Shown here: in pieces, positions 5,042 through 63,458 of the stretch
How positions within the stretch are numbered: the first letter of the stretch is position 1
How the letters are laid out: each line of letters starts with the position of its first letter
From: an uncultured beta proteobacterium
GTDB taxonomy: Bacteria; Pseudomonadota; Gammaproteobacteria; Burkholderiales; JACQAP01
NCBI GenBank assembly: GCA_963695915.1
Contig: CAVOIO010000030.1
Location: 5,814 to 69,813 of the forward strand
Length of the DNA stretch: 64,000 bases
Direction: 5' to 3'
The notes under the pieces: model-generated
Told to the model about the DNA's origin: nothing
What the model saw: the letters and a program-made list of their open reading frames with translations, nothing else
Databases searched by the model: none
Translations under genes and position numbers: made by a program

Positions 5042-5213
5042 TCTCACCACTAAGACACGAAGAAGAGAAAAAAAGTATACGTGTGCAAAGCTCCAATAGG
5101 TGGATGTTCCGACCAAACACGAAGTTGGCGGGAGAGGATCACGAACAGTCACCGCGCTTCTCTCCCAATTAGTGTAAGGATTCCTGTTTGTTCTTCGTGT
5201 CTTCGTGGTGAGA
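5042..5213. repeat. IR element copy 1 (TCTCACCAC termini, CACGAAG arms, ~120 bp unique core)
   Basis: The left arm is TCTCACCACTAAGACACGAAGAAGAG. The right arm TTCTTCGTGTCTTCGTGGTGAGA is its reverse complement. The element lies between proA and lpdA. Confidence 0.85.
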
Positions 5214-5253
5214 TTTGCTTTTCTATAGTTCGCAGCCTGACCGAGGCAAGGGA

Positions 5254-6512
5254 TCACTCGCGAATTTGGCCGTCACCGAGGACGATGAACTTGAGCGACG
5301 TCAGGCCTTCCAGGCCCACGGGGCCGCGGGCGTGCAGCTTGTCGGTGGAAATGCCGATCTCCGCACCCAGGCCGAACTCGAAACCATCGGCAAAGCGGGT
5401 GGACGCGTTGACGAGCACGGAGCTGGAATCCACTTCGCGCAGGAAGCGTCGCGCCCGGGTGATATCTTCGGTGACGATGGCGTCTGTATGCTGCGAACCG
5501 TAAACGGTGATGTGCTCGATCGCCTGGTCGAGGTCATCCACCACGCGCACGGAGAGGATGGGGGCAAGGTACTCGGTGTACCAGTCTTCTTCGGTGGCGG
5601 GTTTCATCTGCGGCACCAGTGCGCGCGCCTGCTGGTCGCCGCGCAGTTCCACGCCTTTGTCGAGATAGATCTTCGCCAGCGCCGGCAGCACGGCTGCGGC
5701 GATGTTCTTGTGCACCAGCAGCGTTTCCATGGTGTTGCAGGTGCCATAGCGCTGCGTCTTGGCGTTGTCGGCGATCCGGATCGCCTTGTCGATGTCGGCA
5801 CGATCGTCGATGTACACGTGACAGACACCGTCGAGATGCTTGAGCACCGGAATGCGCGACTCGTTCGAGATGCGCTCGATCAGGCCTTTGCCGCCGCGCG
5901 GAACGATGATGTCCACGTAGTCTTTCATGGTGATCAGTTCGCCGACCGCGGCACGGTCGGTGGTTTCGATCACCTGGACCGCGGTTTCCGGCAATCCGGA
6001 TTTGCGCAAGCCCTCGTGGACGCAGGCGCCGATGGCCTGGTTGGAATGAATCGCCTCGGAACCGCCACGCAGGATGGCGGCGTTGCCGGACTTCAGGCAC
6101 AGGCCGGCGGCGTCCGCGGTGACGTTGGGGCGCGCCTCGTAGATGATGCCGATGACACCGAGCGGCACGCGCATTCTCCCCACCTGGATTCCGCTGGGCC
6201 GGTAGTTCAGACCGGAGATTTCGCCGACCGGATCGGGCAACGCGGCGATCTGGCGCAATCCTTCGGCCATGGACGCGACGTTCTTCGGTGTCAGCGTCAG
6301 CCGATCCACCATCGCAGCCTCGAGTCCTTTGGCGCGCGCAGCCTCGACATCCCTCCTGTTCGCATCCAGCAGCCGAGCGATGTCGCGCTCGACGGCTTGC
6401 GCCATGGCGAGCAATGCGTCGTTCTTTGCCCTGGTGTCGGCCTTCGCCATCTGGCGCGAGACGAGGCCCGCGCGGCGCGTCCGACCGAGTGCATGTAGGA
6501 CTGAATGTCCAC
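5254..6512 (-). pseudogene. proA: gamma-glutamyl phosphate reductase, one frameshift near 6455
   Basis: The N-terminus [19 protein letters not shown] (GTG start at 6512) is in one frame. The rest, [15 protein letters not shown]...[16 protein letters not shown], is in the 5254..6792 frame. This looks like a single-base indel. Confidence 0.88.
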
Positions 6513-6553
6513 GATTCCTAACCTCGAATTGTGCCGGGGATTTTACCCTTATT

Positions 6554-7583
6554 TCACCGGCGGCATGCCGCTCCTGCGCCGGCGCCATCAGGCTCAATCC
6601 GAGCTGCAGCAGCGCATCCCATACGTCGCCGTCGGCAAGCCCCTTGATCATGCGGTCGACCTCCGCGGCGCGTCGCAACGCGGCGATGAGCTGGGTCGAG
6701 GCCAGTCGCCGCAGCGCGGGCGGCATCAGCTCCTGGCGCGGTCCCCACACGCGCGCTCTCGCGCAACGCCTGCGCCAACGGATGTCCCGCATTCATCGCC
6801 GCCTTCACCCTTGCCATTGCCCGCGTTTCATCGGCGATCGCCCACAGACACCAGTGGTGGCGCGGCGCCCTCGCCGCGCAGGCCGTCAAGCATGCGCACA
6901 AAGTGCGCGCGCTCGCCATTGAGCAGGGCGGCGCCGATCTCGAACACGTTGTAGCGCGCCACGTCCAGCACGGCGTTCTTCACTTCGTCGCAAGGCAGCA
7001 TGCCGGCGGGAAACAGCAGGGCAAGCTTCTTCACTTCCTGGTACGCCGCCATGAGATTGCCCTCTACGCGGCCAACCAGGAAGTCGATCGTTTCGGCGTC
7101 GGCCCGCTGATCCTGTTGTGCGAGCCGGCCGGATAACCATTGCGCCAGCTGCTCGCGCTTGACGGCAGCGGCATGCACAGCCACTCCGGCACGCTCCAGC
7201 GCGTCGAACCATTTGGAAGCCAGCTGCTGGCGATCCAGTCCGGGCAACGTGATCAGGACGATGGTGTCCGCAGGCAGTGAGGCGGCCAGCCGCTGCAAGG
7301 CTTCGGATCCGTCCTTGCCAGGCTTGCCGGAGGGGATGCGCAAGTCCAGCACGCGCCTGCGCGCGAACAGCGACAGGCTGTTGCCGACCATCGCAACTTC
7401 TCCCCAGTCGAATCCGGGTTCGACGAACAGCACACGGCGTTCGTCGTAGCCCTGATTGAGCGCGGCAGCGCGGATGCGATCGGCAGCTTCGAGCGCCAGC
7501 AATAACTCCTCGCCGAACAAGACATACAGGGATTTGAGTCCGCGCGACAGATGCTGGGACAGTTGCTCGGAATCGATCCGCAT
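6554..7583 (-). pseudogene. holA: DNA polymerase III delta subunit, at least 2-3 frameshifts, 3' end unresolved
   Basis: The protein is split across frames: MRIDSEQLSQHL...LDGLRGEGAAPPLV, then [28 protein letters not shown], then [18 protein letters not shown]...[21 protein letters not shown]. Breaks lie near 6845 and 6748. No in-frame stop occurs before proA unless there is another indel near 6570. Confidence 0.8.
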
Positions 7584-7594
7584 CGGCCGGGACG

Positions 7595-7984
7595 TTACGG
7601 ATTGGTCCGCGATTCGGCGAGTTGCGAACCTGCTTCGCGGATCTTGTGGCGGATAAAGTCGCGGACGGCAGCATCCATGCCGCCAGCGCGAACATCGAAC
7701 TCGGCCCCTATGTCCTCGGCGGCAAACCAGCCATCTGCGACCATGATCGGCGTCATGTTCTTGGCCGGCATCTCTTCGCCATCATCGACGCGGCGGTGGA
7801 GGAAACCGTGTTCCGCGTTCCAGGCAAGCACACGTTCGTTGCGCAAGCGGTCATAGCAGAGCTGGAACGCGAGCACCCTCCCGGCAGCGTCCGTCCAGAC
7901 GAACAAGTCGAAGTAATCGTCCTGGAACCAGTGGCGTTCACGGGAAGCGTCGTCTTGCCTCACTCCGCGGATCTTCTGCAGCAT
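7595..7984 (-). CDS. hypothetical cytoplasmic protein (129 aa)
   Basis: Intact ORF MLQKIRGVRQDDASRERHWFQDDYFDLFVWTD..., packed tightly between ptsI and holA. I recognise no family and see no signal peptide. Confidence 0.5.
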   Translation of the reverse strand: MLQKIRGVRQDDASRERHWFQDDYFDLFVWTDAAGRVLAFQLCYDRLRNERVLAWNAEHGFLHRRVDDGEEMPAKNMTPIMVADGWFAAEDIGAEFDVRAGGMDAAVRDFIRHKIREAGSQLAESRTNP

Positions 7985-8000
7985 CCTCGAACTCAGCGAT

Positions 8001-9721
8001 TCATGCGTGCAGGAGCTGCTCCAGCTTGTCGCGATCGTCGCTCTTCAGCATCTTCTGGGTGAGCACCATGACTTGCTGCAGGTCGGACTTCAATACCTGC
8101 TGCTTCACCGACAGCAGGTACGCCGGATGCATCGAGAATTGCCGAAGTCCGAAACCCAAGCAGCACCCTCGTCAGGCGCACGTCGCCGGCCATCTCGCCG
8201 CACACCGCTACCGGCACGTCGGCGCGATTGGCGCTGCGAATTACGTGCGCCACCAGGTTCAGCACGGCCGGATGCAGCGGGTCGTAGAGGTGCGCGACCG
8301 TGTCGTCGGCGCGGTCGATCGCAAGCGTGTACTGGATCAGGTCGTTGGTGCCGATGGAAAGGAAATCGAGCTTGCGGGTAAAGGTAGAGAGCGACAGTGC
8401 CGCGGCCGGAATTTCGATCATGCCCGCCGATCTTGATCTTCTTGTCGTAGGGGATGTCGTCGTCGTGAAGGCTCTTCTTGGCCTCGTCGATCAGGTGCAG
8501 AGTCTGGTTCAGCTCGTGCGCCGAGGACAGCATCGGAATCAGGATGCGCACCTTGCCGTAGTGGGAGGTGCGCAGGATGGCACGCAGCTGGTGATGGAAC
8601 ATCTGCGGCTCGGCCAGGCACAGGCGAATCGCGCGCAGACCCAGCGCCGGATTGGGCGCAACGCGTTCGGTGGTGTCGATGCTGCTTGTCCGCACCGAGG
8701 TCGAAGGTGCGGATGGTGACGGGCAGACCGTCCATGTCCTGCACCACCTTGCGGTAGGCTTCGAACTGTTCGTCCTCGGTCGGCAGGTCGCGGCGATTCA
8801 GGTACAGGAACTCGGTGCGGAACAGTCCGACGCCGTCGGCACCGTTCTCCATGGCGCCGGCAACGTCGTCCGGCAACTCGATGTTGGCGTGCAGTTCGAT
8901 CGCCGTGCCGTCCAGCGTCGTGGTCCTGGTTTTTCTCAGCCGCCTGAGTTTCAGGCGTTCGAGTTCCCACTGTTCCTGGCGCAGTTTGTACTCGCCCAGA
9001 ACCGGTCTTGTCGGGATTGATGATGACCACGCCGCTGGTGCCGTCCACGATCAGCACTTCGTTCTCGCGGATCAGCGTGCGCGCGTGGTGCAGGGCCACC
9101 ACGGAAGGGATGTTCAGGCTGCGGGCGATGATCGCGGTGTGTGACGTGACGCCACCGAGGTCGGTGACGAAACTCGCGAACCGATGGCTCTTGAACAGGA
9201 TGACATCCGCCGGGGAGAGATCGTGCGCGACCAGGACGCTGTTCTCCTCGGGCACGCTGTGCGCAAGGACCTCGCCGGGACGCCCCATCAAAACCTTCAG
9301 TACCCGTTCCACGACCTGAATGACATCGGTCTTGCGCTCGCGGATATAGCCGTCCTCGATACGCTCGAACTGCTCCATCAGTGCTTCCATCTGCAGCTTC
9401 AACGCCCATTCGGCGTTGCATTGTTGGGTTTCGATGAGCTGTTTCGGCACTTCCGACAGGGTCGGATCGTCAAGAATCATCAGGTGCAGATTGAGAAAGG
9501 CTTCGAACTCCGGCGGCGCGCCGACGGGGAATGTGCTGTCCGAGGCCGGCGAGTTCGGCGCGCGTCGTTACCAATGCCGCATCGAAGCGGACCTGTTCAT
9601 CAGCAACCCGTGACTTGGCGATGTTGTAATGCGCGACTTCGAGCTGGGCGTGCGAAACCAGTTGGGCATGGCCGATGGCGATGCCCCCCGATACCCCGAT
9701 GCCGTGGATGGTGAAGCTCAT
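8001..9721 (-). pseudogene. ptsI: phosphoenolpyruvate-protein phosphotransferase (PTS Enzyme I), about 5 frameshifts
   Basis: Fragments span three frames: MSFTIHGIGVSGGIAIGHA, LGGVTSHTAIIARSLNIPSV, GVGLFRTEFLY, ALGLRAIRL, MIEIPAAAL...FLSIGTNDLIQYTLA, and the C-terminus ...KLEQLLHA. Breaks lie near 9515, 9003, 8690, 8425 and 8150. The total length of ~574 codons means there is no GAF domain. Confidence 0.88.
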
Positions 9722-9729
9722 GTAAGAGC

Positions 9730-9824
9730 AGGGGCGAGGGGCGAGGAGTGAGGGGCGAGTAAGTGAAACGTGAATTTTGGCTGCGCGGTATTGACTCGTT
9801 CCTCGTTCCTCGTCCCTCGCCCCT
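9730..9824. repeat. IR element copy 2 (GGCGAGG-type arms, 32 bp spacer)
   Basis: The 31-nt arm AGGGGCGAGGGGCGAGGAGTGAGGGGCGAGT pairs with GACTCGTTCCTCGTTCCTCGTCCCTCGCCCCT. On the plus strand this gives 26 Watson-Crick and 5 G:T pairs with no other mismatch. The element lies between ptsH and ptsI. Confidence 0.8.
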
Positions 9825-9827
9825 GAT

Positions 9828-10623: not shown

Positions 10624-11553
10624 CTTATCCAGCGCATCGATCATCAGCGCGGCGACATTGAAGCCGGTCTGGTCGGCGATTTCACGCATGCAGGTAGGGC
10701 TGGTGACGTTGACTTCGGTCAGGTAATCGCCGATCACGTCCAGGCCAACCAGCATCAGCCCCTGTGCCTTGAGTTCGGGGCCGACCGCCTCTGCGATCTC
10801 GCGGTCGCGAGTGGTCAACGGCTGCGCGACACCGGTGGCGCCGGCGGCGAGATTGCCGCGGGTTTCCCCCTGTTTCGGAATGCGCGCAAGCGAGTAGGGC
10901 ACCGGCTTGCCGTCGATGACCAGGACGCGTTTGTCGCCCTTGGCAATTTCGACGATGAAGCGCTGCGCCATCACCGTGCGCCGGCCGTAATGGGTAAGGG
11001 TTTCGATGACAACCCCGATGTTGGGATCCTGACTGTGCAGGCGGAATACAGAGGTGCCGCCCATGCCGTCCAGCGGTTTGAGGATGATATCCCCGTGTTC
11101 AGCGAGAAAGTCGCGGATCAACGGCTCGACACGCGTGACCAGCGTCGGTACCGTGAACTGCGCAAACTTGGCGATCGCCAGTTTTTCATTGTGGTCGCGC
11201 ACGGCGCGCGGACTGTTGACGACGAGCGCGCCCTGCTTTTCCGCCAGCTCCAGCAGGTAAGTGCTGTAGATGTATTCCATGTCGAACGGCGGGTCCTTGC
11301 GCATCAATACCGCATCGAAGGATTCCAGCGAAACCGGCTTTTTATCGCCGACGCGGTACCAGTGCTTGTCGTCGGAAGCAAGCGACAGGTCGCGCGCGTA
11401 GCCAAGTACGCGGCCGTCGCGCCAGATCAGGTCTTCCTGCTGCAGCACTGCGAGCGCATGGCCGCGGCCCGCCGCCTCGCGCATCATCGCGTAGGAAGAG
11501 TCCTTGTAGGTCTTTATGCTGTCGAGCGGATCGAGAACGAAGGCGATTTTCAT
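10591..11553 (-). CDS. gshB: glutathione synthetase
   Basis: 320 aa: MKIAFVLDPLDSIKTYKDSSYAMM...LMRKDPPFD...ILKPLDGMGG...LTEVNVTSPTC. Confidence 0.92.
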   Translation of the reverse strand: MKIAFVLDPLDSIKTYKDSSYAMMREAAGRGHALAVLQQEDLIWRDGRVLGYARDLSLASDDKHWYRVGDKKPVSLESFDAVLMRKDPPFDMEYIYSTYLLELAEKQGALVVNSPRAVRDHNEKLAIAKFAQFTVPTLVTRVEPLIRDFLAEHGDIILKPLDGMGGTSVFRLHSQDPNIGVVIETLTHYGRRTVMAQRFIVEIAKGDKRVLVIDGKPVPYSLARIPKQGETRGNLAAGATGVAQPLTTRDREIAEAVGPELKAQGLMLVGLDVIGDYLTEVNVTSPTCMREIADQTGFNVAALMIDALDKAVRGRVRRQG

Positions 11554-11973: not shown

Positions 11974-12000
11974 AAAAAAACGGGCGCCCGAAGGCGCCCG
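11974..12000 (-). terminator. rho-independent terminator after amtB
   Basis: On the minus strand the stem GGGCGCC TTCG GGCGCCC is followed by GTTTTTTT, 30 nt after the amtB stop. Confidence 0.85.
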
Positions 12001-14929: not shown

Positions 14930-15193
14930 GTGGATACCAAGTTATTGGATGAATTGAATCGCAGGGTGCGCGATTTGATCGCCGCCACCCCGGCGAAAGA
15001 CATCGAGAAGAATCTGCGCGCGCTCCTGTCGAGCGCTTTCTCGCGGCTCGACCTAGTGACGCGCGAAGAATTCGATGTGCAGCGGGAGGTGCTCCGCCAT
15101 GCCCGCGAGAAGCTGCAGCAGATGGAAGCGCGGGTTGCGGAGCTGGAAGCGAAACTGAGTCAAAAGGGACGAGGGGCGAGGGACGAGGGATGA
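14930..15193 (+). CDS. ubiK: ubiquinone biosynthesis accessory factor UbiK (YqiC/BMFP)
   Basis: GTG start after a GAAGGAGG ribosome-binding site. The sequence runs VDTKLLDELNRRVRDLIAATPAKDIEKNLRALL...REEFDVQREVL. The last ~9 codons (KGRGARDEG) are encoded by the arm of IR element copy 3. Confidence 0.8.
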   Translation: MDTKLLDELNRRVRDLIAATPAKDIEKNLRALLSSAFSRLDLVTREEFDVQREVLRHAREKLQQMEARVAELEAKLSQKGRGARDEG

Positions 15194-15323
15194 GTGGAAA
15201 GAGCATGAGCGTCATTGCGATGAAGGCCGGTCCTACCGCTTTGGAGCTGATCCAACTCCCGTTCCGGATTGTGGCCTTTCGTACAAAGTCCTTTCTCGAC
15301 CCTCGCCCCTCTTCCCTCGTCCC
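15166..15323. repeat. IR element copy 3 (GACGAGG/GGCGAGG arms)
   Basis: GGGACGAGGGGCGAGGGACGAGGGA pairs imperfectly with TCGACCCTCGCCCCTCTTCCCTCGTCCC around a ~100 bp core. The element lies between ubiK and comM. Confidence 0.8.
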
Positions 15324-16840: not shown

Positions 16841-17045
16841 TCACGGCAAAGGCGCAAAGGAAACGCAAAGAAAGACAAATACAAATGTTATAAAAAGCGC
16901 GTTCGTACTGGACGCCTCCTTAAACTTGAGCACATATGCTGAGAGCAAAGATTCCGTGAACGAGAACACATTTTGTATTTCCTCGAGTTGCCTTTGCGTA
17001 CCCCTCGAGGGGGTATTGAAAAGATTGTTTGCGCCTTTGCGGTGA
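16841..17045. repeat. IR element copy 4 (CGCAAAG arms; right arm carries the CCCCTCGAGGGGG module)
   Basis: The left arm TCACGGCAAAGGCGCAAAGGAAACGCAAAGAAAGACAAATACAAA is mirrored by the right arm ...TTTTGTATTT...CCTTTGCGTACCCCTCGAGGGGGTATTGAAAAGATTGTTTGCGCCTTTGCGGTGA. Confidence 0.85.
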
Positions 17046-17054: not shown

Positions 17055-18090
17055 GTGGATGATCTGAAAAGCTGGCAGGAAGAGAAGGGCTCCGCGCACC
17101 TGTACCGCGTGGTTGCCGAGCAGGAATCCGGCACGGCGCGCCAGGGACTGTTTCTTGAACTGGCGCGCGAAGCAGAGAAGCAGGCGAAAATCTGGGAGCG
17201 GAAGATCCGGGAAGCCGGCGGCGCGGTTCCGGAGCACTTCGGGCCGGACCTGCGTACCCGCATCGTCGCCACGCTGGTCAAAACAATGGGGCCGCGGCCA
17301 CTGCGCTCGATGCTTGCCGCGATGAAGGTGCGCGGCATGTCGCTGTATGCGGGCGCCGATCCGCGTCACTTTATTCCGGATTCCACCGCAGGAATGGAGC
17401 GCCGCCACCGAGGGCTGGCGAGCGGCGGGAATCTGCGTGCTGCGGTTTTCGGGGTAAATGACGGGCTGGTCTCGAACGCGAGCCTGATTTTCGGCGTCGC
17501 GGGTGCAACTTCGGACAGCAGGATGATTCTTCTATGCCGGAATTGCCGGCCTGCTTGCCGGGGCCTTCTCGATGGCGGCGGGCGAGTACGTGTCGGTGCG
17601 CTCGCAGCGCGAAATGTACGAATATCAGATCGGCCTTGAGCGCGACGAGCTGGAACAGTATCCGGAGGAGGAAGCCTCGGAGCTGGCGATGATCTACGTG
17701 GCCCGTGGCATTCCCGAAGGCGAAGCGCAGAAAATGGCCAATGTGATCCTGGTGGACCCGACCCGGGCGCTCGATACCCTGGCGCGCGAGGAGCTTGGCC
17801 TCAATCCTTCGGAACTGGGTTCGCCCTGGGGTGCGGCGAGTTTCTCCTTTGTGGCCTTCGCCCTTGGCGCGGTATTGCCGCTGCTGCCCTTCCTGTTCGG
17901 CGCCGGAACGGCCAGCCTGTACATTTCCGTGGGCCTGACTGCCGGCGCCCTGTTTGGCGTCGGTGCCCTGCTGTCCTTGTTCACCGGACGCCAGGCGCTG
18001 CGCGGCGGCCTGCGCATGCTGGTGATCGGTGGCATGGCCGGACTGCTGACGTTTCTTATAGGGAAACTTCTCGGTGTGAGTCTGGGCTAG
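17055..18090 (+). pseudogene. VIT1/CCC1 family iron/manganese transporter with N-terminal helical (ferritin-like) domain, one frameshift near 17535
   Basis: The N-terminal part is MDDLKSWQEEKGSAHLYRVVAE...GVNDGLVSNASLIFGVAG. The C-terminal part, ...AGAFSMAAGEYVSVRSQRE...LLTFLIGKLLG, is in the next frame. Confidence 0.8.
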
Positions 18091-18125: not shown

Positions 18126-18235
18126 ACGCAGAGGACGCAAAGGAAAGACAAGAAAGGGCGCAGAGAAAATCCATTCCAATTGTTCCTTTGCCTCAAGCAT
18201 GATCTTTCCTTTGGTCCTCCATCGTTACTCCGCAG
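18126..18235. repeat. IR element copy 5 (short, degenerate termini)
   Basis: CAGAGGACGCAAAGGAAAGA pairs with TCTTTCCTTTGGTCCTCC around a ~55 bp spacer. The element lies downstream of the VIT gene. Confidence 0.6.
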
Positions 18236-18273
18236 CATTGACACCAGCCCATCAACCCGCTAACGTTGTCTTC

Positions 18274-18323
18274 GCGCCGATTTGATTCTCAGCTTGCGGG
18301 CGCTTAAAAAATACCGCTAAAGC
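18274..18323 (+). promoter_or_regulatory. candidate H-type pseudoknot resembling a SAM-II riboswitch (unverified)
   Basis: P1 pairs GCGCC (18274-78) with GGCGC (18299-303). The loop GAUUUGAUUCUCAGCUUGCG is U-rich, and its GCUU..GC can pair with the 3' tail GC..AAGC (18316-23). The linker UUAAAAAAUA is A-rich. Confidence 0.3.
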
Positions 18324-18333
18324 GTGGAACGAA

Positions 18334-18368
18334 AACCCGTCCCACTCAAGCGGACGGGTTTTTTGTTT
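18334..18368 (+). terminator. intrinsic terminator 12 nt upstream of the metH ATG
   Basis: AACCCGTCC cactcaagc GGACGGGTT is followed by TTTTGTTT. Confidence 0.8.
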
Positions 18369-18379: not shown

Positions 18380-22102
<3,723 letters not shown>

Positions 22103-25655: not shown

Positions 25656-25843
25656 TCTCACCACGAAGGCACGAAGAACACGAAGAGATCAAGATCTGGT
25701 TGGGATTTACTTGGTGAACTCTCAAATTGTGGTAACTGTGCGAATTTGCCGGTACCTCATGTTGGACCTGCTCTCGTTCATGTGAAGTCCATCCGGCCTT
25801 GCTCTTCGTGTGTCTTCGTGTTCTTCGTGCCTTCGTGGTGAGA
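25656..25843. repeat. IR element copy 6 (canonical CACGAAG arms, 114 bp core)
   Basis: TCTCACCACGAAGGCACGAAGAACACGAAGAG pairs with CTCTTCGTGTGTCTTCGTGTTCTTCGTGCCTTCGTGGTGAGA. The right arm has one extra 8-10 nt unit. Confidence 0.9.
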
Positions 25844-28216: not shown

Positions 28217-28247
28217 CACCGGAAGGCACAACAGAAGGACCGCAAGG
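28217..28247. repeat. solo arm of the IR-element type
   Basis: CACCGGAAGGCACAACAGAAGGACCGCAAGGA has the purine-rich ~8-mer periodicity. No complementary partner is present within 150 bp. Confidence 0.4.
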
Positions 28248-28389
28248 ATTGTCATTCTGAGCATCGCATCCGGAGCTGCACCGTAATAGGGGATTCTGCG
28301 TCCAGGCGCGAGCAATCTGAAACCGATGTTTGCGAACGCGTTTAACACCGGAATCCAATCACAAGGTAACCAACGAAAAGGGGAAAGTC

Positions 28390-31616: not shown

Positions 31617-31802
31617 CCACCACGGAGACACAAAGGACACAAAGGAATCCAGGAAAAGAACTTCAGGTGAACTCGTGGCGAACAAGCCACGACGTTGCCG
31701 CCAGATACGAACCACGCACGATTCGTCCTGCTAGGCAAGCATTCTAGTGTGTGTTCCGTCGTTTGATAATCTTCCTTCCGTGCCTCTGCGTCTCTGCGGT
31801 GA
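31617..31802. repeat. IR element copy 7 (CACAAAGG versus CCTCTGCG arms)
   Basis: CCACCACGGAGACACAAAGGACACAAAGGAA pairs with TTCCTTCCGTGCCTCTGCGTCTCTGCGGTGA. Five of the mismatches are A:C on the plus strand, which would be U:G on the minus strand. The element lies between msrP and msrQ. Confidence 0.8.
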
Positions 31803-33674: not shown

Positions 33675-33702
33675 TCTCACCACGAAGACACGAAGAAAAA
33701 CC
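33675..33702. repeat. solo left-type arm of the IR element at the left edge of the AT-richer island
   Basis: TCTCACCACGAAGACACGAAGAAAAACC has no complementary arm nearby. The nearest complementary arm is at 38277-38309. Confidence 0.7.
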
Positions 33703-38276: not shown

Positions 38277-38309
38277 GCTTCGTATTTCTTCGTGCCTTTG
38301 TGCGGAGAA
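38277..38309. repeat. solo right-type arm of the IR element at the right edge of the AT-richer island
   Basis: The reverse complement of CTGCTTCGTATTTCTTCGTGCCTTTGTGCGGAGA is TCTCCGCACAAAGGCACGAAGAAATACGAAGCAG. It shares the flank AGTTCTC and the run CACGAAGAAA with the arm at 33675. Confidence 0.65.
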
Positions 38310-41285: not shown

Positions 41286-41543
41286 TCTCACCACGAAGGC
41301 TGACAACAACAAACCTGAACGCTCACCACGAAGGCACGAAGACACGAAGAAAGGCAAGACAATGTTGTTTGATTGCCGGATTGCATGGATTTGGCAGTTC
41401 TCTCGATACCGATTGCACGGTTCTCATCGATTAAGGCTGTCGTAGTCGTCGGACACGTGAGGACAGCGTGTTCTGTACAGCGAGTTCATTTGCAGAAATT
41501 GTTCTTTAGGTTTTCTTCGTGTCTTCGTGCCTTCGTGTTGAGA
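41286..41543. repeat. IR element copy 8 (duplicated left terminus, 153 bp core)
   Basis: The left side reads TCTCACCACGAAGGC, a 20 nt gap, then GCTCACCACGAAGGCACGAAGACACGAAGAAAGG. The right arm is TTTTCTTCGTGTCTTCGTGCCTTCGTGTTGAGA. Confidence 0.88.
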
Positions 41544-43563: not shown

Positions 43564-43593
43564 AGGCGTGAGGCGTGAGGCGTGAGGCGAAGG
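43564..43593. repeat. tandem 8-mer (GGCGTGAG x3 plus GCGAAGGG), a solo arm-like tract
   Basis: Direct reading of the gmhB-glyS spacer. It shows the same purine-rich 8-nt periodicity as the IR-element arms but has no partner. Confidence 0.6.
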
Positions 43594-43614: not shown

Positions 43615-45751
43615 TCACGCGGCGAGCTTGGAGATGTCGGCGATGCGATTCATTTCGTCGCGGAGATCCCGCAGCAACGCGAGCCGGTTCTGGCGTAACT
43701 CTTTCTCGTCAACCATGACCATTACCGATTCAAAAAAAGCGTCCACCGGCGACTTCAGCACGGCGAAGGCTTTCAGGTAACCGGTGTAGTCGCCGTTTTG
43801 CAGCAGAGGGATCGCGTTTCTGGTTGCGATCGCAAGCGCGTCGAACAACTCGCGCTCGGCCGTCTCGGTCAATGCATCGGCCTGGGCGCCTCTAAAGGAC
43901 TCTCCTTTGGCCTCCGCTTGTTTGAGGATATTGACGACGCGCTTGTTCGCCGCAGCAAGGCTCTCCGCTTCCGGAAGGCTGGCGAATGCGCGCACCGCCG
44001 CTAACCAGAGCGGGGTTTGATCGATTCGAGCCGGATACTTGCTGAGGACTGCATCGACTTCGTTCGCGGAATACCCCGATTCGCGCAGATAACTACGCAA
44101 TCGCTCCCAGATGAATAACTGCAAATCCGACTGCGTGCCGGCGAGCATTCCATTCGGAAATACCGAGTAAGCCGCATCTACAAGGTCATGAAGCGATACT
44201 GGTAGCCCGCGTTCAACGAGAATTCGGATTATTCCCAAGGCGTGTCGCCGCAACGCAAACGGATCTTTGTCCCCGGTCGGCTGTTGGCCGATGCCGAACA
44301 TGCCAGCAAGCATCTCCAGCTTGTCGGCCAGCGCGAGTGCCGTTGCAATCTCGCCACCCGGCAATGCGCCGCCTGCAAATCGCGGCTGATAATGCTGCTC
44401 GATTGCGTCAGCCACGCGCACATCCTCGCCATCGGCGAGCGCGTAATACCGGCCCATGATGCCTTGAAGCTCGGGGAATTCGCCGACCATGCTGGTGACC
44501 AGATCGGCCTTGGCGAGCAGCGCGGCGCGGTCGGCAAGCAGCGGATCGGCGCCGACCATCGCTGCAATCGCCCTGGCCAACGCACGAACGCGCTCGACGC
44601 GATCGAGCTGGCTGCCGAGCTTGTTGTGGTAGACGATGGAGGCGAGTTGGGGCACGCGGTCGGCGAGCTTGGTCTTCTTGTCGGTCTCGAAGAAGAAGCG
44701 CGCGTCGGCCAATCGCGGGCGTATTACGCGCTGATTGCCCGCCACGATGTTCTTCGGGTCGGCAAGGCGCATGTTCGAAACGATCAGGAACTTGTTGGTG
44801 AGCTTGCCGGCCGCGTCGAACAGCGGGAAATATTTCTGGTTCTGGCGCATGGTCAGGATCAGACATTCCTGCGGCACGCCCAGATAGTCCGGACTCGAAT
44901 TCCCCGACGTACACCGTGGGCAACTCGACCAGTCCCGCGACTTCGTCGAGCAACGGCGCGACGTTCTCGTCGGGACCCAGCGAAGCCTTGAGCGCAGCGG
45001 CGTTCACCGCGAGCTGGCGGCCGATCTCGGCCCTGCGCTTGTCGAAATCGGCGATGACGCGGCCTTCCTGCGCGAGCCGGGATTCATACTCGTCGGCGCG
45101 GACCAGGGCGATGTTCTTCGCCCCCTGGAAGCGATGGCCATGAGTGATGCGGCCGGCCGCCAGGCCGAGCGCGGAAACGTTGAGCACCTTGTCGCCATGC
45201 AGCGCGACCAACGCGTGGACGGGGCGAACGAATCTGACGGTCGTAGCGCCGTCGGCGAGCTGGTAGCTCATCACTCTTGGAATGGGCAGCTTGCCGATGG
45301 CCCGCTCGATCGCATCGGATAGCATTCGTTCGAGTGTTTGACCCGGCGCGATGCTTCGCAGGAATACGGCTTCGGCCTTGCCATCCGGTTTGATTAGCAG
45401 AAACTCGCCACCAACTTTGGAATTGGCCGGAACATCGGCCAGCCGTTCACGGCCCATGCTTGCCAGCTTCCTGCGCAATGCGTCGCTCCAGCCGCCGTCC
45501 GGTTTGCGCGCCACGGCCAACGGCATGAGTTTTTGCTCGACCGGACGGTCTCTGGCCTTGGCCAGCACCGCCCCGATGTAAACCGCCAAACGCCGTGGCG
45601 TGGCGAATGGCTTGAAGCTGGACGTCGCATCCAGAACCCCGCCGCCTTTGAGTCCATCGAATACCGCACCGGCAAAGGCATCGCCCAGCCGCCTGAGAGC
45701 TTTCGGCGGCAATTCCTCGGTGACGAGTTCGACCAGCAGGTTCGAACTCAT
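43615..45751 (-). pseudogene. glyS: glycine-tRNA ligase beta subunit, one frameshift near 44895
   Basis: [19 protein letters not shown]... is followed in another frame by ...[21 protein letters not shown]...ISKLAA. The ATG overlaps the glyQ stop. Confidence 0.9.
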
Positions 45752-46689
45752 GCGGTTTCTCTTTGCAGCAGAGCAGCCTTCATGGCCTGGAGGTCCAACC
45801 CGAGTTGCTGCAAATGGCCCGGTTTGCACATCGGGAAATCCTTGCGCAGCCGGGAATCGAAGTAAGCCTGCGACACGCTGCGCGCAAGGTTGCGGATACG
45901 GCCGATGTAGGCCGCGCGCTCGGTGACCGAGATCGCGCCACGCGCATCCAGGAGGTTGAAGGTATGCGCGGTCTTCAACACCATTTCGTAGGCGGGCAGG
46001 GCGAGCTGTGCGCTCATCAGCCGCTTCGCTTCGGATTCGTAATCGGCGAAATGAGCGAACAGCATTTCCGGGTTGGATTGTTCGAAGTTGTAACGGGACT
46101 GTTCGATTTCGTTCTGGTGATAGACGTCGCCGTAGGTGAGGCCGGGAGTCCACACCAGGTCGAAGACGTTTTCCACGCCTTGCAGGTACATGGCGAGTCG
46201 CTCGATGCCGTAGGTGATCTCGCCTGTAATCGGCTTGCAGTCGAGCCCGCCGACCTGCTGGAAGTACGTGAACTGGGTGACTTCCATTCCGTTCAGCCAG
46301 ACTTCCCAACCCAGGCCCCAGGCTCCGAGCGTGGCGTTTTCCCAGTCGTCTTCGACCAGGCGTATGTCGTGCGCCTTCGGATCGATGCCGAGCGTTTCCA
46401 GCGAACCGAGATAGAGATCGATGATGTCGGCCGGCGACGGCTTCAGCACTAACTGAAACTGGTAATAGTGCTGCAACCGGTTCGGATTCTCGCCGTAGCG
46501 GCCGTCCTTGGGCCGGCGCGAGGGCTGTACGTAGGCTGCACGCCACGGCTCGGGACCGATTGCGCGCAGAAACGTCGCCGTGTGCGAAGTGCCCGCACCG
46601 ACTTCCATGTCATAGGGTTGCAGGATCGCGCAGCCGCGATCGGCCCAATAGCGGGTCAGCGTCAGAATTACTTCCTGGAACGTCAACAT
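45748..46689 (-). CDS. glyQ: glycine-tRNA ligase alpha subunit
   Basis: [42 protein letters not shown]... Confidence 0.93.
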
Positions 46690-46860: not shown

Positions 46861-46951
46861 TCAAAGGTCCTTTGGTCTTTTCCCGGCGATCCCTTCGCGC
46901 ACCCCTCAAGGGGGTGTTGAAAGGAAGTATTGGAACGAATCTTTGCGGTGA
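46861..46951. repeat. half IR element (right terminus with the CCCCTCAAGGGGG module)
   Basis: ...CCTTCGCGCACCCCTCAAGGGGGTGTTGAAAGGAAGTATTGGAACGAATCTTTGCGGTGA. No left partner was found. Confidence 0.65.
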
Positions 46952-46957
46952 AAGAGG

Positions 46958-53321: not shown

Positions 53322-53742
53322 TTAGCTGCTGCTTTTCGCTGCTTTCTTCTTCTTCTCTTCTTCCTCTTCCCGTTTCTTCCTTTGCTCCTCCTCCAGTTTC
53401 TGTTTTTCCGCCGCGTCCAGCTTCGACAATTTGTATTTCTTAGCTTCCTCCCCTGTCAGCAACCACATCGCCGACAACTGGCCGTTGATGTCGACCACAT
53501 ACATGATCTGCCGCGGTCTGCTGCTGCAGCGACACTGGCATGATGATCAGATTCTGCTGGTTGAAAATGCGGCCGGCTGCCGACATCCGGTAGGACCTGC
53601 TGCCGATCTTGTAGTTCGGGTACTGGTGTGCCTTGAGTTCGCCCCGATAGGCATGTGGCGGGAAGAAGCGATCGAGCGCCGCAGCTGGCGTCGCGATCAG
53701 GGACGACAGGACCATCACACAGACGGCGAAGACGTTGCGCAT
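53322..53742 (-). pseudogene. hypothetical secreted protein with a Lys/Glu-rich tail, one frameshift near 53505
   Basis: MRNVFAVCVMVLSSLIATPAAA (signal)...IIMPVSLQQQ is followed by [25 protein letters not shown]...[15 protein letters not shown]. Confidence 0.45.
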
Positions 53743-58978: not shown

Positions 58979-59015
58979 GGCGGCGATGACAACTAAGTAC
59001 AGCGAAAAGCGAAAA

Positions 59016-59264
59016 TCTCACCACGGAGGATTCTTTTCTATACCCCCTTGAGGGGTGCACAGAGGACACGGATACCCTCGCGATAGCGTGGAGTACCCAA
59101 TTAGGAATACCGAAAACGAGGTAAAACATGTGGCACTTTAAGATCGTGCCTGCTGCAAAAGTGACTACCGTTACCTGGTTTTACTCACGAATTCCTTTTT
59201 TTGCTCGTGCCCTTCCTCCGTGCACCCCTCAAGGGCGTATAGAAAAGAATCCTCCGTGGTGAGA
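59016..59264. repeat. IR element copy 9 (58-nt arms, both carrying the CCCTTGAGGGG module)
   Basis: The left arm is TCTCACCACGGAGGATTCTTTTCTATACCCCCTTGAGGGGTGCACAGAGGACACGG. The right arm is ...GTGCACCCCTCAAGGGCGTATAGAAAAGAATCCTCCGTGGTGAGA. Confidence 0.9.
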
Positions 59265-59284
59265 CTTACGGTTTTTTGGCAGGA

Positions 59285-59677: not shown

Positions 59678-59705
59678 TGGACATTAAACGTGGCGAAGCG
59701 GCAAG

Positions 59706-59995
59706 GCCGGCTAGGGAAGCTCTGCATAGGTCCGACGACGCGCGTTGCGCCAGGTACGGATGACTGCTAGGCGTCGCTTTGCAGTTGCGGCTGAAGCCCC
59801 AACAAGGAGCGTAACAACGCAGGCGCCGCACCTGGCACAACCCAATAATATTTCGACTCTTTCGAGGGACCGGGCGATTCGAGCCGATGTCTGCGTCGGC
59901 TCCTCCTTATGTAGGCCGGCTACACGGCGTCCTCGCCGTCTTGCCCTCGACCCGAATCGCCTCGGTCGCGCATGCGGGACTTACGCAGAGCTTCC
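59706..59995. repeat. ~290 bp nested-hairpin region bounded by a ~34 bp imperfect inverted repeat (different from the main family)
   Basis: CTAGGGAAGCTCTGCATAGGTCC (59711-) pairs with GGGACTTACGCAGAGCTTCCCTAG (-59989). The inner pairs are GCGCCAGGTACGG/CCGCACCTGGCAC and GACCGGGCGATTCG/CGAATCGCCTCGGTC. Confidence 0.55.
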
Positions 59996-60089
59996 CTAGG
60001 GGGCGCGATCCAACGAGGGATGGCCGGCCACCGTTTGCTACAATGCCGCGTTCTTTCGCCTGCGGGCAGCGCCGCTGATCGAATCGCCC

Positions 60090-60749: not shown

Positions 60750-60759
60750 GACACGTACG

Positions 60760-60963
60760 TCTCACCACGAAGGCCCGAAGGACGCGAAGAAACACCAAGA
60801 AGGACGGGATGCGGAAATCTACCCATCCATTTTGTGTAGGCTGTAGTTCCCGCCAACCGCTTCCGCAAGGTATTCCCCTTCGAAATGAAGATCCGTTTTT
60901 GCTAGCCATTTTTTTTGGGGCTTTCTTCGTGAACCTTCGTGTTCTTCGTGCCTTCGTGGTGAG
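60760..60963. repeat. IR element copy 10 (CACGAAG/CCGAAGG arms)
   Basis: TCTCACCACGAAGGCCCGAAGGACGCGAAGAAACACC pairs with TTTCTTCGTGAACCTTCGTGTTCTTCGTGCCTTCGTGGTGAG. The element lies between rpe and gph. Confidence 0.88.
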
Positions 60964-60996
60964 CATTCTGGTTTTCTGCGTTTGCGGCGGTATCTG

Positions 60997-61686: not shown

Positions 61687-61772
61687 ACTTTCTGAAACTC
61701 GAAAACCTGAGGCTGGAAATCGGGGCCGACCGGCGCTGGTGGCGCCCGTCCGTGTTCTGGCGCTGCATCTGA
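61683..61772 (+). CDS. trpL: Trp-rich leader peptide (29 aa) of trpE
   Basis: [29 protein letters not shown] has tandem TGG TGG at 61737-61742 and a third TGG at 61758. Its ATG overlaps the gph stop (ATGA). Confidence 0.6.
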
Positions 61773-61795
61773 GCGTCGCCGGTTTCCGTTTCATC
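61729..61795 (+). promoter_or_regulatory. putative trp attenuator (alternative hairpins plus U-rich tract)
   Basis: The terminator-like hairpin GGCGCTGC/GCGTCGCC (61759-61780) is followed by GGTTTCCGTTTCATCGTT. Competing pairings are GCGCC (61742-46) with GGCGC (61759-63), and ACCGGCGC (61729-36) with GCGTCGCCGGT (61773-83). Confidence 0.5.
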
Positions 61796-61821
61796 GTTCT
61801 TCGCAGTTTCAGGAGTTCGCC

Positions 61822-63297
61822 ATGACTGAGCAGGAATTCAAGCAACTTGCCGCGCAGGGTTTCAACCGCATCCCGGTTGTACTCGAAACCTTTGCCGACC
61901 TCGACACTCCGCTCTCGGTTTATCTCAAGCTCGCTAACAAGCCCTATTCCTATTTGCTGGAATCGGTGCAGGGAGGCGAGCGGTTCGGCCGCTACTCCTT
62001 CATCGGCCTGCCTGCGGACACCCGCTTCGAAGTGCGCGGCCATACCTGTGCCGAGTTCCGGCGCGGCACGTTGGTGAGCCAGACCGAACACGACAACCCC
62101 CTTGATTTCGTCTCGGCCTGCCATGCGCGCATCAGGGCGGCCTCCCGGTCGGAGTTGCCGCGTTTTCTTGGTGGCCTGGTCGGCTGTTTTGGCTACGATA
62201 CCGTACGTTATGTGGAAAGGAAGCTTGCTGCCACGCAAAAGTCCGACACCCTCCATACCCCGGACATCCTGCTTCTGCTCTCCGAGCAACTGGTCGTACT
62301 GGATAATCTTTCCGGCAAGCTGTTTCTGGTGGTCTATGCCGATCCACGCGAAGCCGGCGCGTATTCGCGTGCCCAGCAGCGTTTGCAGGAACTGCTGTGG
62401 ATGCTGCGCCAGCCGGTCGTGGTGCCGCCGGAAGCCCCCACGACGCCCGCACAACCGCAGTCCGAGTTCAGCGAAGACGCTTTCATGGAGGCGGTGGAGT
62501 GCGCCAAGCGCTACATTTTTGACGGCGACATCATGCAGGTGGTGCTGTCGCAGCGCGTGAGCCTGCCTTACCATGCCTCGCCCCTGTCGTTGTACCGTGC
62601 CTTGCGTGCGCTCAACCCCTCGCCTTACATGTTTTATTTCGACATGGGCGGATTTCACGTGGTCGGCGCTTCGCCCGAGATCCTGGTGCGGCTGGAAAGC
62701 GGGGTGGTGACACTGCGGCCGATAGCCGGCACCCGGCCGCGCGGTGCCAGCCGCGAAGAGGACGTCGCGCTGGAGCGCGAACTGCTCGCCGACCCCAAGG
62801 AGCGCGCCGAACATGTGATGCTGATGGACCTGGGGCGCAACGACGTCGGCCGGGTGGCGCAGGTCGGCAGCGTGCGCGTGACGGAGAACATGACCATCGA
62901 GCGTTATTCGCACGTGATGCACATCGTTTCCAACGTCGACGGCAAGCTCAAGCCCGGCCTGGATGCCATGGCGGTGCTGAAGGCAACCTTTCCCGCCGGT
63001 ACCGTGAGTGGAGCGCCGAAAGTGCGGGCGATGGAAATTATCGACGAACTGGAACCATCCAAGCGCGGCATCTATGCCGGGGCTGTGGGCTACCTCGGAT
63101 TCAACGGCGACATGGATCTTGCGATCGCGATCCGCACCGCTGTGGTGAAGGATGGCACGCTGTATGTGCAGGCCGGCGCCGGCATCGTCGCCGATTCGGT
63201 GCCGAAGAACGAATGGGTCGAGACCCAGAACAAGGCGCGCGCACTGCTGCGCGCCGCCGAAATGGCGCAGGCGGGCCTCAACAGCAAGATTGATTGA
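61822..63297 (+). CDS. trpE: anthranilate synthase component I
   Basis: 491 aa: ...[17 protein letters not shown]...[17 protein letters not shown]... Confidence 0.93.
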
Positions 63298-63302
63298 ACA
63301 AC

Positions 63303-63458
63303 TAACCACGGAGGAAATCGCCTCGCCCCCCGCCCTCTCCAGCAAGCTGGAGAGGGTGCCGAAAAACCACACGATCGCGGATCGGGGCGTTTGTATCACC
63401 CTCTCCACCCGGTTTTGGGGGGAGAGGGATGGGGCGAGGGGGGTGTTCTCCGTGGTGA
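63303..63458. repeat. IR element copy 11 (arms each contain a CCCTCTCC/GGAGAGGG side hairpin)
   Basis: TAACCACGGAGGAAATCGCCTCGCCCCCCGCCCTCTCC... pairs with ...GGAGAGGGATGGGGCGAGGGGGGTGTTCTCCGTGGTGA. The element lies between trpE and trpG. Confidence 0.8.

Follow-up and report, generated by a model that had tools for sequence, protein, structure and literature searches.

Short tandem repeats that stand in inverted pairs between bacterial genes have been catalogued before. In Geobacter metallireducens, the class 2 sites of Aklujkar et al. (2009) consist of three to five tandem 7-8-mers that occur as opposite-strand pairs at variable distances in intergenic DNA, and they were read as IHF or HU sites, with no hairpin, no GxxExxY gene, and no cross-phylum link described (PMC2700814). 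Xanthomonas genomes each hold 70-75 convergent inverted pairs of intergenic tandem GGGAATC heptamer arrays (Rehm et al., 2015), which lie mostly between co-directional open reading frames (ORFs), near the upstream ORF, and whose location is conserved between species while their length and sequence vary (PMC4692102). Here we analyze elements of comparable layout in a 64,000-nucleotide stretch of DNA from an uncultured beta proteobacterium (GenBank assembly GCA_963695915.1, contig CAVOIO010000030.1, positions 5,814 to 69,813), hereafter called the window. An earlier note on the window had described at least 11 complete copies of one family of inverted-repeat elements, and the 11 that it listed (numbered E1 to E11) are all present at the coordinates and with the architecture that it gave. 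As judged from sequence comparison, the best reading is that most copies (eight of the 11, plus two solo arms) are gene-less members of a widespread family whose full-length forms carry a gene for a nuclease of the GxxExxY family (PF13366).

The Geobacter catalogue overlaps with the window in sequence as well as in layout. The class 2 consensus TCTCCGTS[Y], which was compared only in its published form, is the reverse complement of the CACGGAGA unit of E9 and E11. In both of these elements, as in a Geobacteraceae locus with CACGGAGA arms (L023), CACGGAG(A/G) units stand in inverted pairs, as the class 2 sites do. The termini match no family in Rfam and do not occur in E. coli genomes, but this unit was listed in 2009 without a mechanism (PMC2700814). 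The supplement of the G. bemidjiensis genome paper contains no CACGAAG repeats. Paired inverted tandem units are a classic layout for protein-binding sites, as was proposed for the class 1 to 3 sites (PMC2700814), and the units might accordingly be arrays on double-stranded DNA to which IHF, HU, or another nucleoid protein, or else a global regulator, binds. We consider this very unlikely because the unit sequence shifts at orthologous sites while complementarity is kept, because many unrelated units share one architecture, and because a spacing of 7-9 bp should place successive sites on different faces of the helix.

The Xanthomonas arrays differ from the window elements in that they have another unit, were interpreted as G-quadruplex forming, and have no reported associated gene. 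A third relative is the BoxC/PIT/triplex motif (Holder et al., 2015), an intergenic purine/pyrimidine palindrome of the form CCCTCNCCC N3-6 GGGNGAGGG N3 GGGNGAGGG found in more than 260 genomes (PMC4666352). Modules in the core of E11 fit this motif approximately, whereas E2 and E3 share only its GGGNGAG unit. BoxC is compact (34-37 nt), in contrast to the long hairpins of E2 and E3 with four units per arm plus a loop, and the main family of the window, with its CRCRRAG unit, is unrelated to BoxC in sequence. The TAACTGA heptamers of Beggiatoaceae, Cyanobacteria, and Bacteroidetes (MacGregor, 2015) also occur in intergenic DNA of distant phyla, often directly upstream of start codons (PMC4679880). 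Unlike the window elements, these heptamers and those of the cyanobacterial short tandemly repeated repetitive (STRR) type are nearly always direct arrays without an inverted partner.

A different comparison is offered by repetitive extragenic palindromic (REP) sequences, the bacterial interspersed mosaic elements (BIMEs) built from them, and the REPINs that are tied to REP-associated tyrosine transposase (RAYT) genes. Like these, the window elements are short, extragenic, high-copy palindromic repeats, often located within operons and mosaic with other modules, and REPINs are likewise non-autonomous repeats tied to one protein family that is itself repeat-flanked. However, a REP unit is a 20-40-nt imperfect palindrome, whereas the arms in the window are direct arrays of 7-9-nt units that produce a palindrome only when both arms are present. 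REP and BIME sequences carry a GTAG or CGTC tag at one end (PMC3733652), which the window family lacks; its terminus instead reads nnTTCAC followed by CACGAAGG. Furthermore, the candidate partner of the window family is a PD-(D/E)XK nuclease rather than an HUH Y1 transposase, and in contrast to REPINs the family has long, mutually unrelated cores and crosses phyla. MITEs (miniature inverted-repeat transposable elements) are similar in that they are small, non-coding, and intergenic, and share terminal inverted repeats with a gene-bearing relative. The window elements differ from them in having no target-site duplication, no shared core, and no partner from a known transposase family, and they persist and evolve at orthologous sites. 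The eukaryotic Foldback elements, in which inverted ends made of short tandem subrepeats surround a heterogeneous center, are an architectural analogue.

None of the three repeat papers discussed above (PMC2700814, PMC4692102, PMC4666352) ties its repeats to a gene. In the literature available to us, we found no description of a gene-less miniature mobile element of this type, and a literature search by sequence string returned nothing relevant. Non-autonomous palindromic repeats with a protein partner are a known kind of element, of which we classify the GxxExxY-linked form as new.

Arm architecture and sequence families

With up to two mismatches allowed, TCTCACCACGAAGG is present 12 times in the window, compared with an expectation of 0.40, and this number was never attained in 100 dinucleotide shuffles. 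A repeat finder recovered every element as a pair of inverted arms of 26-62 nt that are 72-97% complementary and 33-159 nt apart, and Tandem Repeats Finder resolved the arms into arrays of 7-9-nt units. The arms form stems of 25-60 bp. Fold z-scores relative to shuffled sequence range from -3 to -10 among the tested elements of the window and its relatives, with a degenerate orthologue in L130 (+1) as the exception. (Compared loci are designated L plus a number.) Neither the purine arm nor the pyrimidine arm folds by itself, and the stem needs both. These very stable stems, whose complementarity is kept while the unit sequence changes, fit the earlier suggestion of a structured RNA or DNA element. 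Against Rfam 15, in both gathering and E-value modes, only a tRNA reached threshold in the window, and the elements matched microRNA-precursor hairpins below threshold.

The cores are as dissimilar as had been claimed, with no core-to-core match at a blastn E-value of 0.01 or lower. Most are AT-richer than the window (GC 0.42-0.53 versus 0.615), but the core of E11 is not (0.67). The 11 copies cover 1,981 bp, or about 2.3 kb when partial arms are included, which is slightly less than the previous estimate of about 2.5 kb.

A profile (R1) was built exclusively from arms that come from other genomes, 80 in all, and its consensus reads nnTTCAC followed by CACGAAGG(n)CACGAAGG(n)CACGAAG. In the window it matches 14 arms at E < 0.01; at E < 0.1, the number rises to 19. 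Eight of the 11 complete copies (E1, E4, and E6 to E11) are represented among these arms, as are two solo arms (33673 and 38284). All of the matched arms face outward: the + strand has the left arms, and the - strand the right ones. The unit varies by transitions only (CACGAAG, CACGGAG, CACAGAG, CACAAAG, CGCAAAG, CGCAGAG), which gives a main-family consensus of C-R-C-R-R-A-G plus 0-2 nt, with one to five units per arm. Members of this family end in TTCAC or TCTCAC on one side and in GTGAA or GTGAGA on the other, with A-rich and T-rich flanks. Beyond the stem, GTGA(R)A gives way to T-rich sequence, and the opposite side has the mirror image, an A-rich tract; among 442 arms from viral contigs, T makes up 45-54% at positions +9 to +13. 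E2, E3, and E5 have no R1 match, and the units of E2 and E3 are GGGNGAG, as in E. coli BoxC. The view that all copies form a single sequence family is therefore refuted, as at least two families had been lumped together.

The elements are not confined to this contig and are not an assembly artefact, because the same or orthologous elements occur in the independent metagenome assemblies L121, L124, L128, L129, L230, and L236. A scan of the genome collection with a 14-mer, which proved too short a pattern, returned 120 loci, of which about 60% are chance hits that we used as a negative control. At about 40-45 of the 120, tandem CACGAAG units come directly after the 14-mer, mostly accompanied by an inverted partner at a distance of 20-300 nt. 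In the first 100 loci, R1 recovers 71 arms, all of them within the roughly 40 loci where tandem units follow the 14-mer. The hosts include Verrucomicrobia, Planctomycetes, Acidobacteria, Chloroflexi, Methylomirabilota, Binatia, Lentisphaerae, several candidate phyla, and alpha-, beta-, gamma-, and deltaproteobacteria, including Geobacteraceae. Overall, the family spans at least a dozen bacterial phyla; none of 5,426 E. coli genomes contains it. One Burkholderiales metagenome-assembled genome has three homologous copies (L017, L068, L113), but these are not unambiguous evidence of transposition, because they share upstream sequence that is possibly a paralogous gene end.

Viral contigs of IMG/VR contain 96 stretches with the family. 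In one of them (L165, IMGVR_UViG_3300050821_011454), which is a bona fide cluster of phage tail genes (DUF2460, baseplate hub, Phage-tail_3), an element occupies most gene junctions. Several elements of this contig (e.g., at 7176-7224, 9770-9825, and 11299-11345) are followed by GCGTTTTCTTTTT and then by a conserved CTCACTGCCTCAC...CATTGTGAA motif 10-20 nt before the start codon, which may be a repeated phage promoter or translation signal. Nostocales plasmids carry solo arrays. On the Anabaena cylindrica plasmid pANACY.02 (L127, NC_020157.1, 169.4-169.7 kb), two RND efflux genes are separated by a spacer with solo arrays of TCACGCAAAGACGCAAAG and ACCACGAAGGGACGAAGGACACGAAG that adjoin a classical TGTCACC heptamer array, and thus CACGAAG-family units are present in cultured cyanobacteria. 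The genomes that host the family also contain, in several phyla, tandem-repeat-arm hairpins with quite different units, which indicates that the architecture is broader than the CACGAAG family.

GxxExxY genes between inverted arms

A Pfam scan of about 45 ORFs found only housekeeping genes in the window, and so the reported lack of a transposase, RAYT, or recombinase is confirmed. It had also been suggested that arm-flanked copies with a gene, such as one for a PD-(D/E)XK protein, be sought elsewhere. Such copies exist: a GxxExxY gene stands at the E11 site of relatives, and three unrelated GxxExxY genes are also associated with arms.

One such relative is L233, whose TrpE is 96% identical to that of the window. 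At the site of E11, its arms enclose an ORF of 130 amino acids in the order trpE stop codon, ATG-AACCAC-AGAGACACAGAGGCACAGAGAGA purine arm, ORF, stop codon of the ORF, TTTTCTCCGTGTCTCTGTGTCTCTGTGGTGAG pyrimidine arm, 5 nt, and trpG ATG. The purine arm is ATG-AACCAC(AGAGNCAC)n, which reads as the codons MNHRDTEAQRD, and the pyrimidine arm ends in GTGGTGAG. The encoded protein belongs to the GxxExxY family (PF13366 PDDEXK_3, E = 6.8e-44; TIGR04256, E = 9.5e-46). Similar arms with a GxxExxY gene are found between trpE and trpG in L277 and in L279 to L286. The protein of the latter (P0236, 73% identical) is present on 24 contigs, and all eight places shown, which stand for the 24, have the order trpE-GxxExxY-trpG-trpD. 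Given these gene-bearing elements at the same junction of relatives, E11 can be regarded as a gene-less occupant of that site.

The other cases come from unrelated loci. On a viral contig (L287) with a protein that is 56% identical, ATTCACCAC...CACGAAGG lies upstream and ...CTTTGTGGTGAAT downstream of the GxxExxY gene. In L295, GTGAACCACGAAGGCGCGAAGG... is located at the 5′ end of the GxxExxY ORF, and CCCTTCGTGCCCTTCG...CCCTTCGTG directly follows its stop codon. In a Sedimentisphaerales locus (L032), the gene has a complete CACGAAG hairpin on each side. N-termini that are encoded by arms (NHRGTE..., NHEGAKETKGTKD..., MIHHRGTEGTEDTEV, VNHEGAKETKGTKDE) are present in at least nine of 150 diverse cluster representatives under a strict pattern, and more are seen by eye. 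The GxxExxY gene has a GC content of 0.48 in a locus of 0.62 and is in this respect similar to the cores. AT-rich phage contigs also hold PF13366 genes that are more distant, and the tandem arrays on either side of these genes consist of AT-rich units unrelated to CACGAAG. Two IMG/VR contigs illustrate such arrays, which are direct in L290 (GAAATGGTATTTAGAATTGGTATTTAAAAT) and inverted in L291 (repeated AATTATAAATAAA).

The GxxExxY family is large, with 23,780 clusters (at 50% identity) that match at E ≤ 0.001. The catalytic residues D74, E84, and K86 (D...ExK) are invariant, and the nuclease is predicted on this basis to be catalytically intact. An AlphaFold model (predicted local distance difference test score of 92) has PD-(D/E)XK nucleases as its best, though weak, matches in the PDB, including lambda-exonuclease-like proteins, Cas4, the Hjc resolvase, and a homing-endonuclease domain. 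A sequence search of the PDB found no solved PF13366 structure. In the literature, PF13366 is described as a family of unknown function with multiple transfers between divisions (PMC3424549), and we found no link between it and repeats. Many top-scoring representatives (P0241 to P0252 and others) have 260-295 amino acids with two matched stretches; these are either tandem double-domain proteins or adjacent genes fused by the gene caller.

If the hairpins and the gene did not belong together, then the hairpins could be operon punctuation selected by the host, of the REP/BIME or phage T7 RNase III-site kind, and GxxExxY a separate selfish gene that homes into their loops. The arms would then belong to a host hairpin and not to a GxxExxY element. 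This is the main alternative, which we take seriously but consider doubtful. It would accommodate the L032 gene, which sits between two complete hairpins, as well as the other small modules (CCCCTYRAGGGG, BoxC-like) nested in arms and cores. It is also in keeping with the persistence of hairpins at junctions across relatives while their sequence changes, with the tandem-repeat-arm hairpins of arbitrary units in several phyla, and with the presence of an element in most junctions of the L165 tail-gene cluster. However, in three of the four independent cases (trpE-trpG, L287, and L295), the 5′ end of the gene overlaps or abuts the purine arm, and the pyrimidine arm begins directly after the stop codon or within about 40 nt of it. 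At trpE-trpG, the start codon and the outer terminus of the purine arm are even joined to each other, and this suggests that gene and arms form one unit. In addition, the ancestral junctions are tight and work without a hairpin.

Operon junctions and the standing of the elements

Every copy in the window is located between co-directional genes, and most of these gene pairs are operon partners. At the closely examined junctions, the element nearly fills the spacer, such that a few nucleotides separate the base of the stem from the upstream stop codon on one side and from the following start codon on the other. The GGTGAG(R) terminus is often 5-7 nt from the start codon and resembles a Shine-Dalgarno sequence.

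The window derives from an uncultured member of Burkholderiales, as the names of its ComM homologues indicate, and the same junctions were compared among syntenic relatives (82-95% ComM identity, 84-94% Gph identity). These have either a tight junction of 0-20 nt or, at the corresponding position, an element whose unit and core are different. The junction of the BMFP gene with comM is 15-18 nt long in L132 and L133, that of rpe with gph is about 20 nt in L237, and that of trpE with trpG is 5-15 nt in L238/239, L241, L260, L268-270, and L273. Equally close relatives have elements of 90-440 nt at those same junctions. By this comparison, the ancestral state of element-bearing junctions is the tight one.

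Where an element is present, its two arms change together. Between the BMFP gene and comM, the units of different relatives form a series of transitions (GGATGAA, GGACGAA, GGACGAG, GGGCGAG) that is mirrored in both arms, and between comM and VIT1 the units are CACAGAG or CGCAAAG, again with the change mirrored. Unit type, unit number, and core can all differ at one junction in different relatives, and the two arms always match each other. In 92 of 160 elements, the two arms share the type of their first unit, whereas 50 would be expected by chance. Arms are thus shown, at the level of sequence, to evolve in concert in place, by gain and loss of units and what would be arm-against-arm correction. 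Some cores are conserved in the same orientation, as in E6 and L129, E3 and L125, and E4 and L121.

Concerted change of this kind might also be produced without any function or mobility, by junction palindromes that grow through replication slippage and template switching (quasi-palindrome correction). Such neutral by-products would be expected to vary in unit number among orthologues, to change in concert by transitions, and to leave remnants like the mini-palindrome in L128, all of which is seen, and heptamer repeats are over-represented in many bacteria (PMC4692102). We nevertheless give this explanation little credence, as it leaves unexplained why the same terminus plus unit (about 20-30 nt) should recur in phage contigs and across at least a dozen phyla, why the elements are repeatedly paired with a single protein family, and why their cores of 100-370 nt are unrelated to the ancestral spacer of 5-20 nt.

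Conserved core orientation also bears on the idea, raised in the earlier note, that the elements are invertons whose inverted arms recombine and flip the core. Although inverted repeats around a variable core are the architecture of such modules, orthologous cores have the same orientation in all assemblies compared, no recombinase is encoded among the approximately 45 ORFs, and the core of full-length members is a complete gene. This idea is thus unsupported, and we regard it as extremely improbable.

The T-rich 3′ side and A-rich 5′ side of the stems, together with the GCGTTTTCTTTTT that follows stems in L165, might instead indicate bidirectional intrinsic terminators or transcriptional insulators. 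Yet the window copies are located inside operons (trpE-trpG, ptsH-ptsI, and msrP-msrQ), and none of the three convergent junctions of the window carries an element. A short GC-rich hairpin with T7 is used at a true operon end, as illustrated by the canonical terminator CGGGCGCC-TTCG-GGCGCCCG-T7 (11981-12000) after amtB, and the elements are therefore not the ordinary terminators of this genome. Intrinsic terminators have a short GC-rich stem with a loop of 3-8 nt and an adjacent U-tract and stand at the end of a transcription unit; the elements share the T-rich flank, but their loops of 30-370 nt are unlike those of known terminators. Moreover, the A- and T-rich flanks are symmetrical and not sense-specific, with orientation assigned by the longest ORF, which is noisy in GC-rich DNA. 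Termination or insulation is consequently an improbable role.

On balance, we lean toward the view that the window elements belong, as non-autonomous relatives, to a palindromic element associated with GxxExxY, and that they are tolerated because the stem brings stop and start codons back together. The relation of the window copies to GxxExxY elements would then be roughly that of MITEs to insertion sequences, or of REPINs to RAYT genes. Within the mRNA, the purine arm and the pyrimidine arm would zip together and loop out the core or the nuclease gene, which would re-join the two cistrons and keep their translational coupling, and the GGUGAG(R) terminus could act as a ribosome-binding site. 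We propose that insertions survive inside operons and phage late genes because this coupling is retained. The stem may also serve as an exonuclease barrier or a processing site, as in REP/BIME. At the DNA level, the GxxExxY nuclease might act in trans on the hairpin or cruciform that the arms form, and the elements would be spread or maintained in this way. As a cause of the cross-phylum conservation, mimicry of the 16S anti-Shine-Dalgarno interaction (UCACC/GGUGA) was rejected: VIT1, gph, and trpG agree with it, whereas E1, E6, and E10 do not. It is retained as part of the coupling idea. Likenesses to a sigma-54 promoter, a DnaA box, a Chi site, and parS were poor matches and were dropped.

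Several observations weigh against this reading. Gene-bearing, arm-flanked copies favor the mobile element that the earlier note had considered, but transposition was not observed, and no target-site duplication is visible at the flanks of the window copies or of about 45 copies elsewhere. Only four independent cases combine the gene with arms, and in L032 the gene lies between two complete hairpins and not within one arm pair. Of the 120 nearest GxxExxY homologues, the majority are orthologues from a single locus, and their shared N-terminus therefore counts once. No GxxExxY remnant is detectable in the 11 window cores, and since these cores are also unrelated to one another, derivation from gene-bearing copies is supported by position (E11) and not by sequence. 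E2, E3, and E5 are outside the GxxExxY link. The "empty" sites of the closest relatives, L128 and L237, retain a right-terminus fragment and may therefore be deletion scars instead of never-occupied sites. Neither G-U pairs nor fold energies show a consistent strand bias (four sense versus seven antisense in the window, mixed in L165) that would support an RNA role specific to the sense transcript. Finally, E. coli PIT/BoxC is reported to show neither promoter nor terminator activity (PMC4666352).

A bolder proposal, which we put forward tentatively and think may well prove wrong, is that a class of selfish "operon-junction" elements exists across many phyla. Its members would consist of a GxxExxY gene between inverted tandem arrays and would spread, together with far commoner gene-less copies, via nuclease action on the arm hairpin or cruciform, while the stem and the Shine-Dalgarno-like GGUGA would cancel the polarity that the insertion causes. 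If true, this would provide a function for a protein family of more than 20,000 clusters and account for the excess of heptamer and octamer arrays in bacterial intergenic DNA.

Even the link to GxxExxY alone, if it holds, would give a first functional context to GxxExxY/PF13366 proteins, which are annotated in very many genomes. It would also bring the Geobacter "global regulator sites," the Xanthomonas inverted heptamer arrays, and the general heptamer excess under one architecture, and an RNA stem that bridges cistrons would be a way for an insertion to sit in an operon without breaking it. There are practical consequences as well. The repeats break short-read assemblies, such that contigs with GxxExxY genes are typically 0.6-3 kb long, and the arms are mistranslated as spurious N-termini (MNHRDTEAQRD), for which annotation pipelines would gain from an arm model.

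Individual copies and neighboring features

The coordinates of the elements are listed in Table 1. The partial arms proposed in the earlier note are of mixed quality: those at 33675, 38277, and 43564 are real solo arms, that at 46861 is a degenerate element, and that at 28217 is weak.

Table 1. Complete and partial inverted-repeat elements of the window, with E-values of matches to profile R1
Feature	Positions	Strand	Arms and location	R1 E-value
E1	5042-5213		TCTCAC-(CACGAAG)n; arms 26 nt, 92% complementary; between aldehyde dehydrogenase and lpdA genes, both on - strand	1.4e-7 and 1.8e-4
E2	9730-9824		GGGGCGA/GGAGTGA unit arms (BoxC-like); ptsH-ptsI	no match
E3	15166-15323		GGGACGAG/GGGCGAG arms; BMFP gene-comM	no match
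E4	16841-17045		TCACxGC-(GCAAAGG)n arms; comM-VIT1	0.02 and 0.05
E5	18126-18235		short, ACGCAGAGG/ACGCAAAGG arms; fold z = -4.4; 3′ of VIT1, directly upstream of metH promoter and leader	no match
E6	25656-25843		TCTCAC-(CACGAAG)n, best-preserved copy; arms 34 nt, 97% complementary; upstream of amidase gene	3.4e-9 for each arm
E7	31617-31802		CCACCACGGAG/CACAAAG arms; msrP-msrQ	1.5e-5 and 3.3e-3
E8	41286-41543		element 41321-41543 plus extra solo left terminus 41286-41299; arms 31 nt, 97% complementary; between ygjP-like gene and gene for pyridoxal phosphate-dependent (Orn/DAP/Arg-type) decarboxylase	
E9	59005-59275		62-nt composite arms, 92% complementary: TCTCACCACGGAGG, CCCCTTGAGGGG module, CACAGAGG/CACGGA units; between apaG and methyltransferase gene	
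E10	60760-60963		TCTCAC-(CACGAAG)n; rpe-gph	
E11	63303-63458		one unit per arm (TAACCACGGAGG ... CTCCGTGGTGA); trpE-trpG	
Weak purine-rich array	28217-28248	+	CACCGGAAGG...; membership doubtful	no match
Solo left arm	33675-33702	+	TCTCACCACGAAGACACGAAGA	1e-6
Solo 3′ (pyrimidine) arm	38277-38308	+	ends GTGCGGAGA	2.6e-3
Solo array	43564-43593	+	(GGCGTGA)x3-4; glyS-gmhB-like gene	
Degenerate element	46861-46954		CCCCTCAAGGGGG module (46902), right terminus TCTTTGCGGTGAAAG (46940-46954); upstream of glyQ	

Individual junctions illustrate how tightly the elements fit and how they differ between relatives. The E1 junction is just a 66-nt spacer in L130. E2 follows the ptsH-ptsI layout of stop codon, 3 nt, stem, 8 nt, and ATG, with a fold z-score of -10.1, and orthologous hairpins with other units occupy its position in L128 and L130. 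In E3, the stop codon of the BMFP gene lies within the 5′ arm, and the GTG of comM, which lacks a Shine-Dalgarno sequence, is 13 nt past the 3′ arm. In E4 (GGTGAGG, start codon GTG) and all its orthologues, the GGTGAG(G/A) right terminus is 7 nt before the VIT1 start. The same junction has CACAGAG arms in L124 and L129 and is reduced to a 30-nt remnant, TCACAtttgcgGTGAGG, in L128. The E6 orthologue of L129, whose core is the same and equally oriented, differs in unit number. Between rpe and gph, relatives have either an E10-type element (L230, L236) or other units (L233, L234, L235, L259).

The label "modular" is apt, given the small modules nested in arms and cores. A CCCCTYRAGGGG module is present in one arm of E4, in both arms of E9, and at 46902. 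Within the arms, a small palindromic module of the form (A)CCCCTYRAGGGGG(T)ATWGAAAAGA recurs at 17001-17011, 46902-46912, 59044-59054, and 59225-59235. The first of these, the nested CCCCTCGAGGGGG module of E4, is found in one arm only and looks like the insertion of a second tiny repeat. The core of E11 consists of two inverted modules that resemble the BoxC/triplex motif, at 63321-63358 and 63397-63443 (CCCTCTCC ... GGAGAGGG ... GGGGCGAGGGG).

About 16 intergenic spacers are occupied, in approximate agreement with the claimed third, although many frameshifted genes block an exact count. Examples of genes that are split by frameshifts in the window and are single ORFs in relatives are ptsI (8001-9721), VIT1 (17055-18090), metH (18380-21425), and glyS (43615-46546). 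This pattern suggests either indel errors of long-read assembly or pseudogenes, and it makes both ORF-based gene calling and the spacer count unreliable. Assembly also affects one relative: L121 (ENA ERZ25039492 contig_14933), which is about 95% identical to 13.4-23.9 kb of the window, is a perfect self-palindrome of inverted copies joined at P-II and is almost certainly a chimeric artefact of long-read assembly.

Other features of the window lie outside the repeat family. Upstream of metH (18239-18368), a TTGACA promoter-like hexamer is followed by a riboswitch candidate and then by a hairpin plus T6 terminator. The candidate (18264-18337) is of the SAM-II type and scores 32.3 bits with RF00521 (SAM_alpha), just below the gathering threshold of 36, and the leader is kept in L125, L126, and L128 to L130. 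The 135-nt spacer between gph and trpE (61687-61821) is near-invariant in more than 12 relatives (84-94% Gph identity), while neighboring spacers turn over. It holds GGCGCTGGTGGCGCC and T-rich runs and may be a trp leader or attenuator. In the divergent apaG-rpe region (59706-60004), there is an inverted repeat of another kind with 28-nt arms that are 86% complementary and 243 nt apart. Next to miaB (53326-53412) is a long, pyrimidine-rich, low-complexity tract, TTCTTCTTC..., which probably encodes a Lys/Glu-rich protein tail on the - strand.

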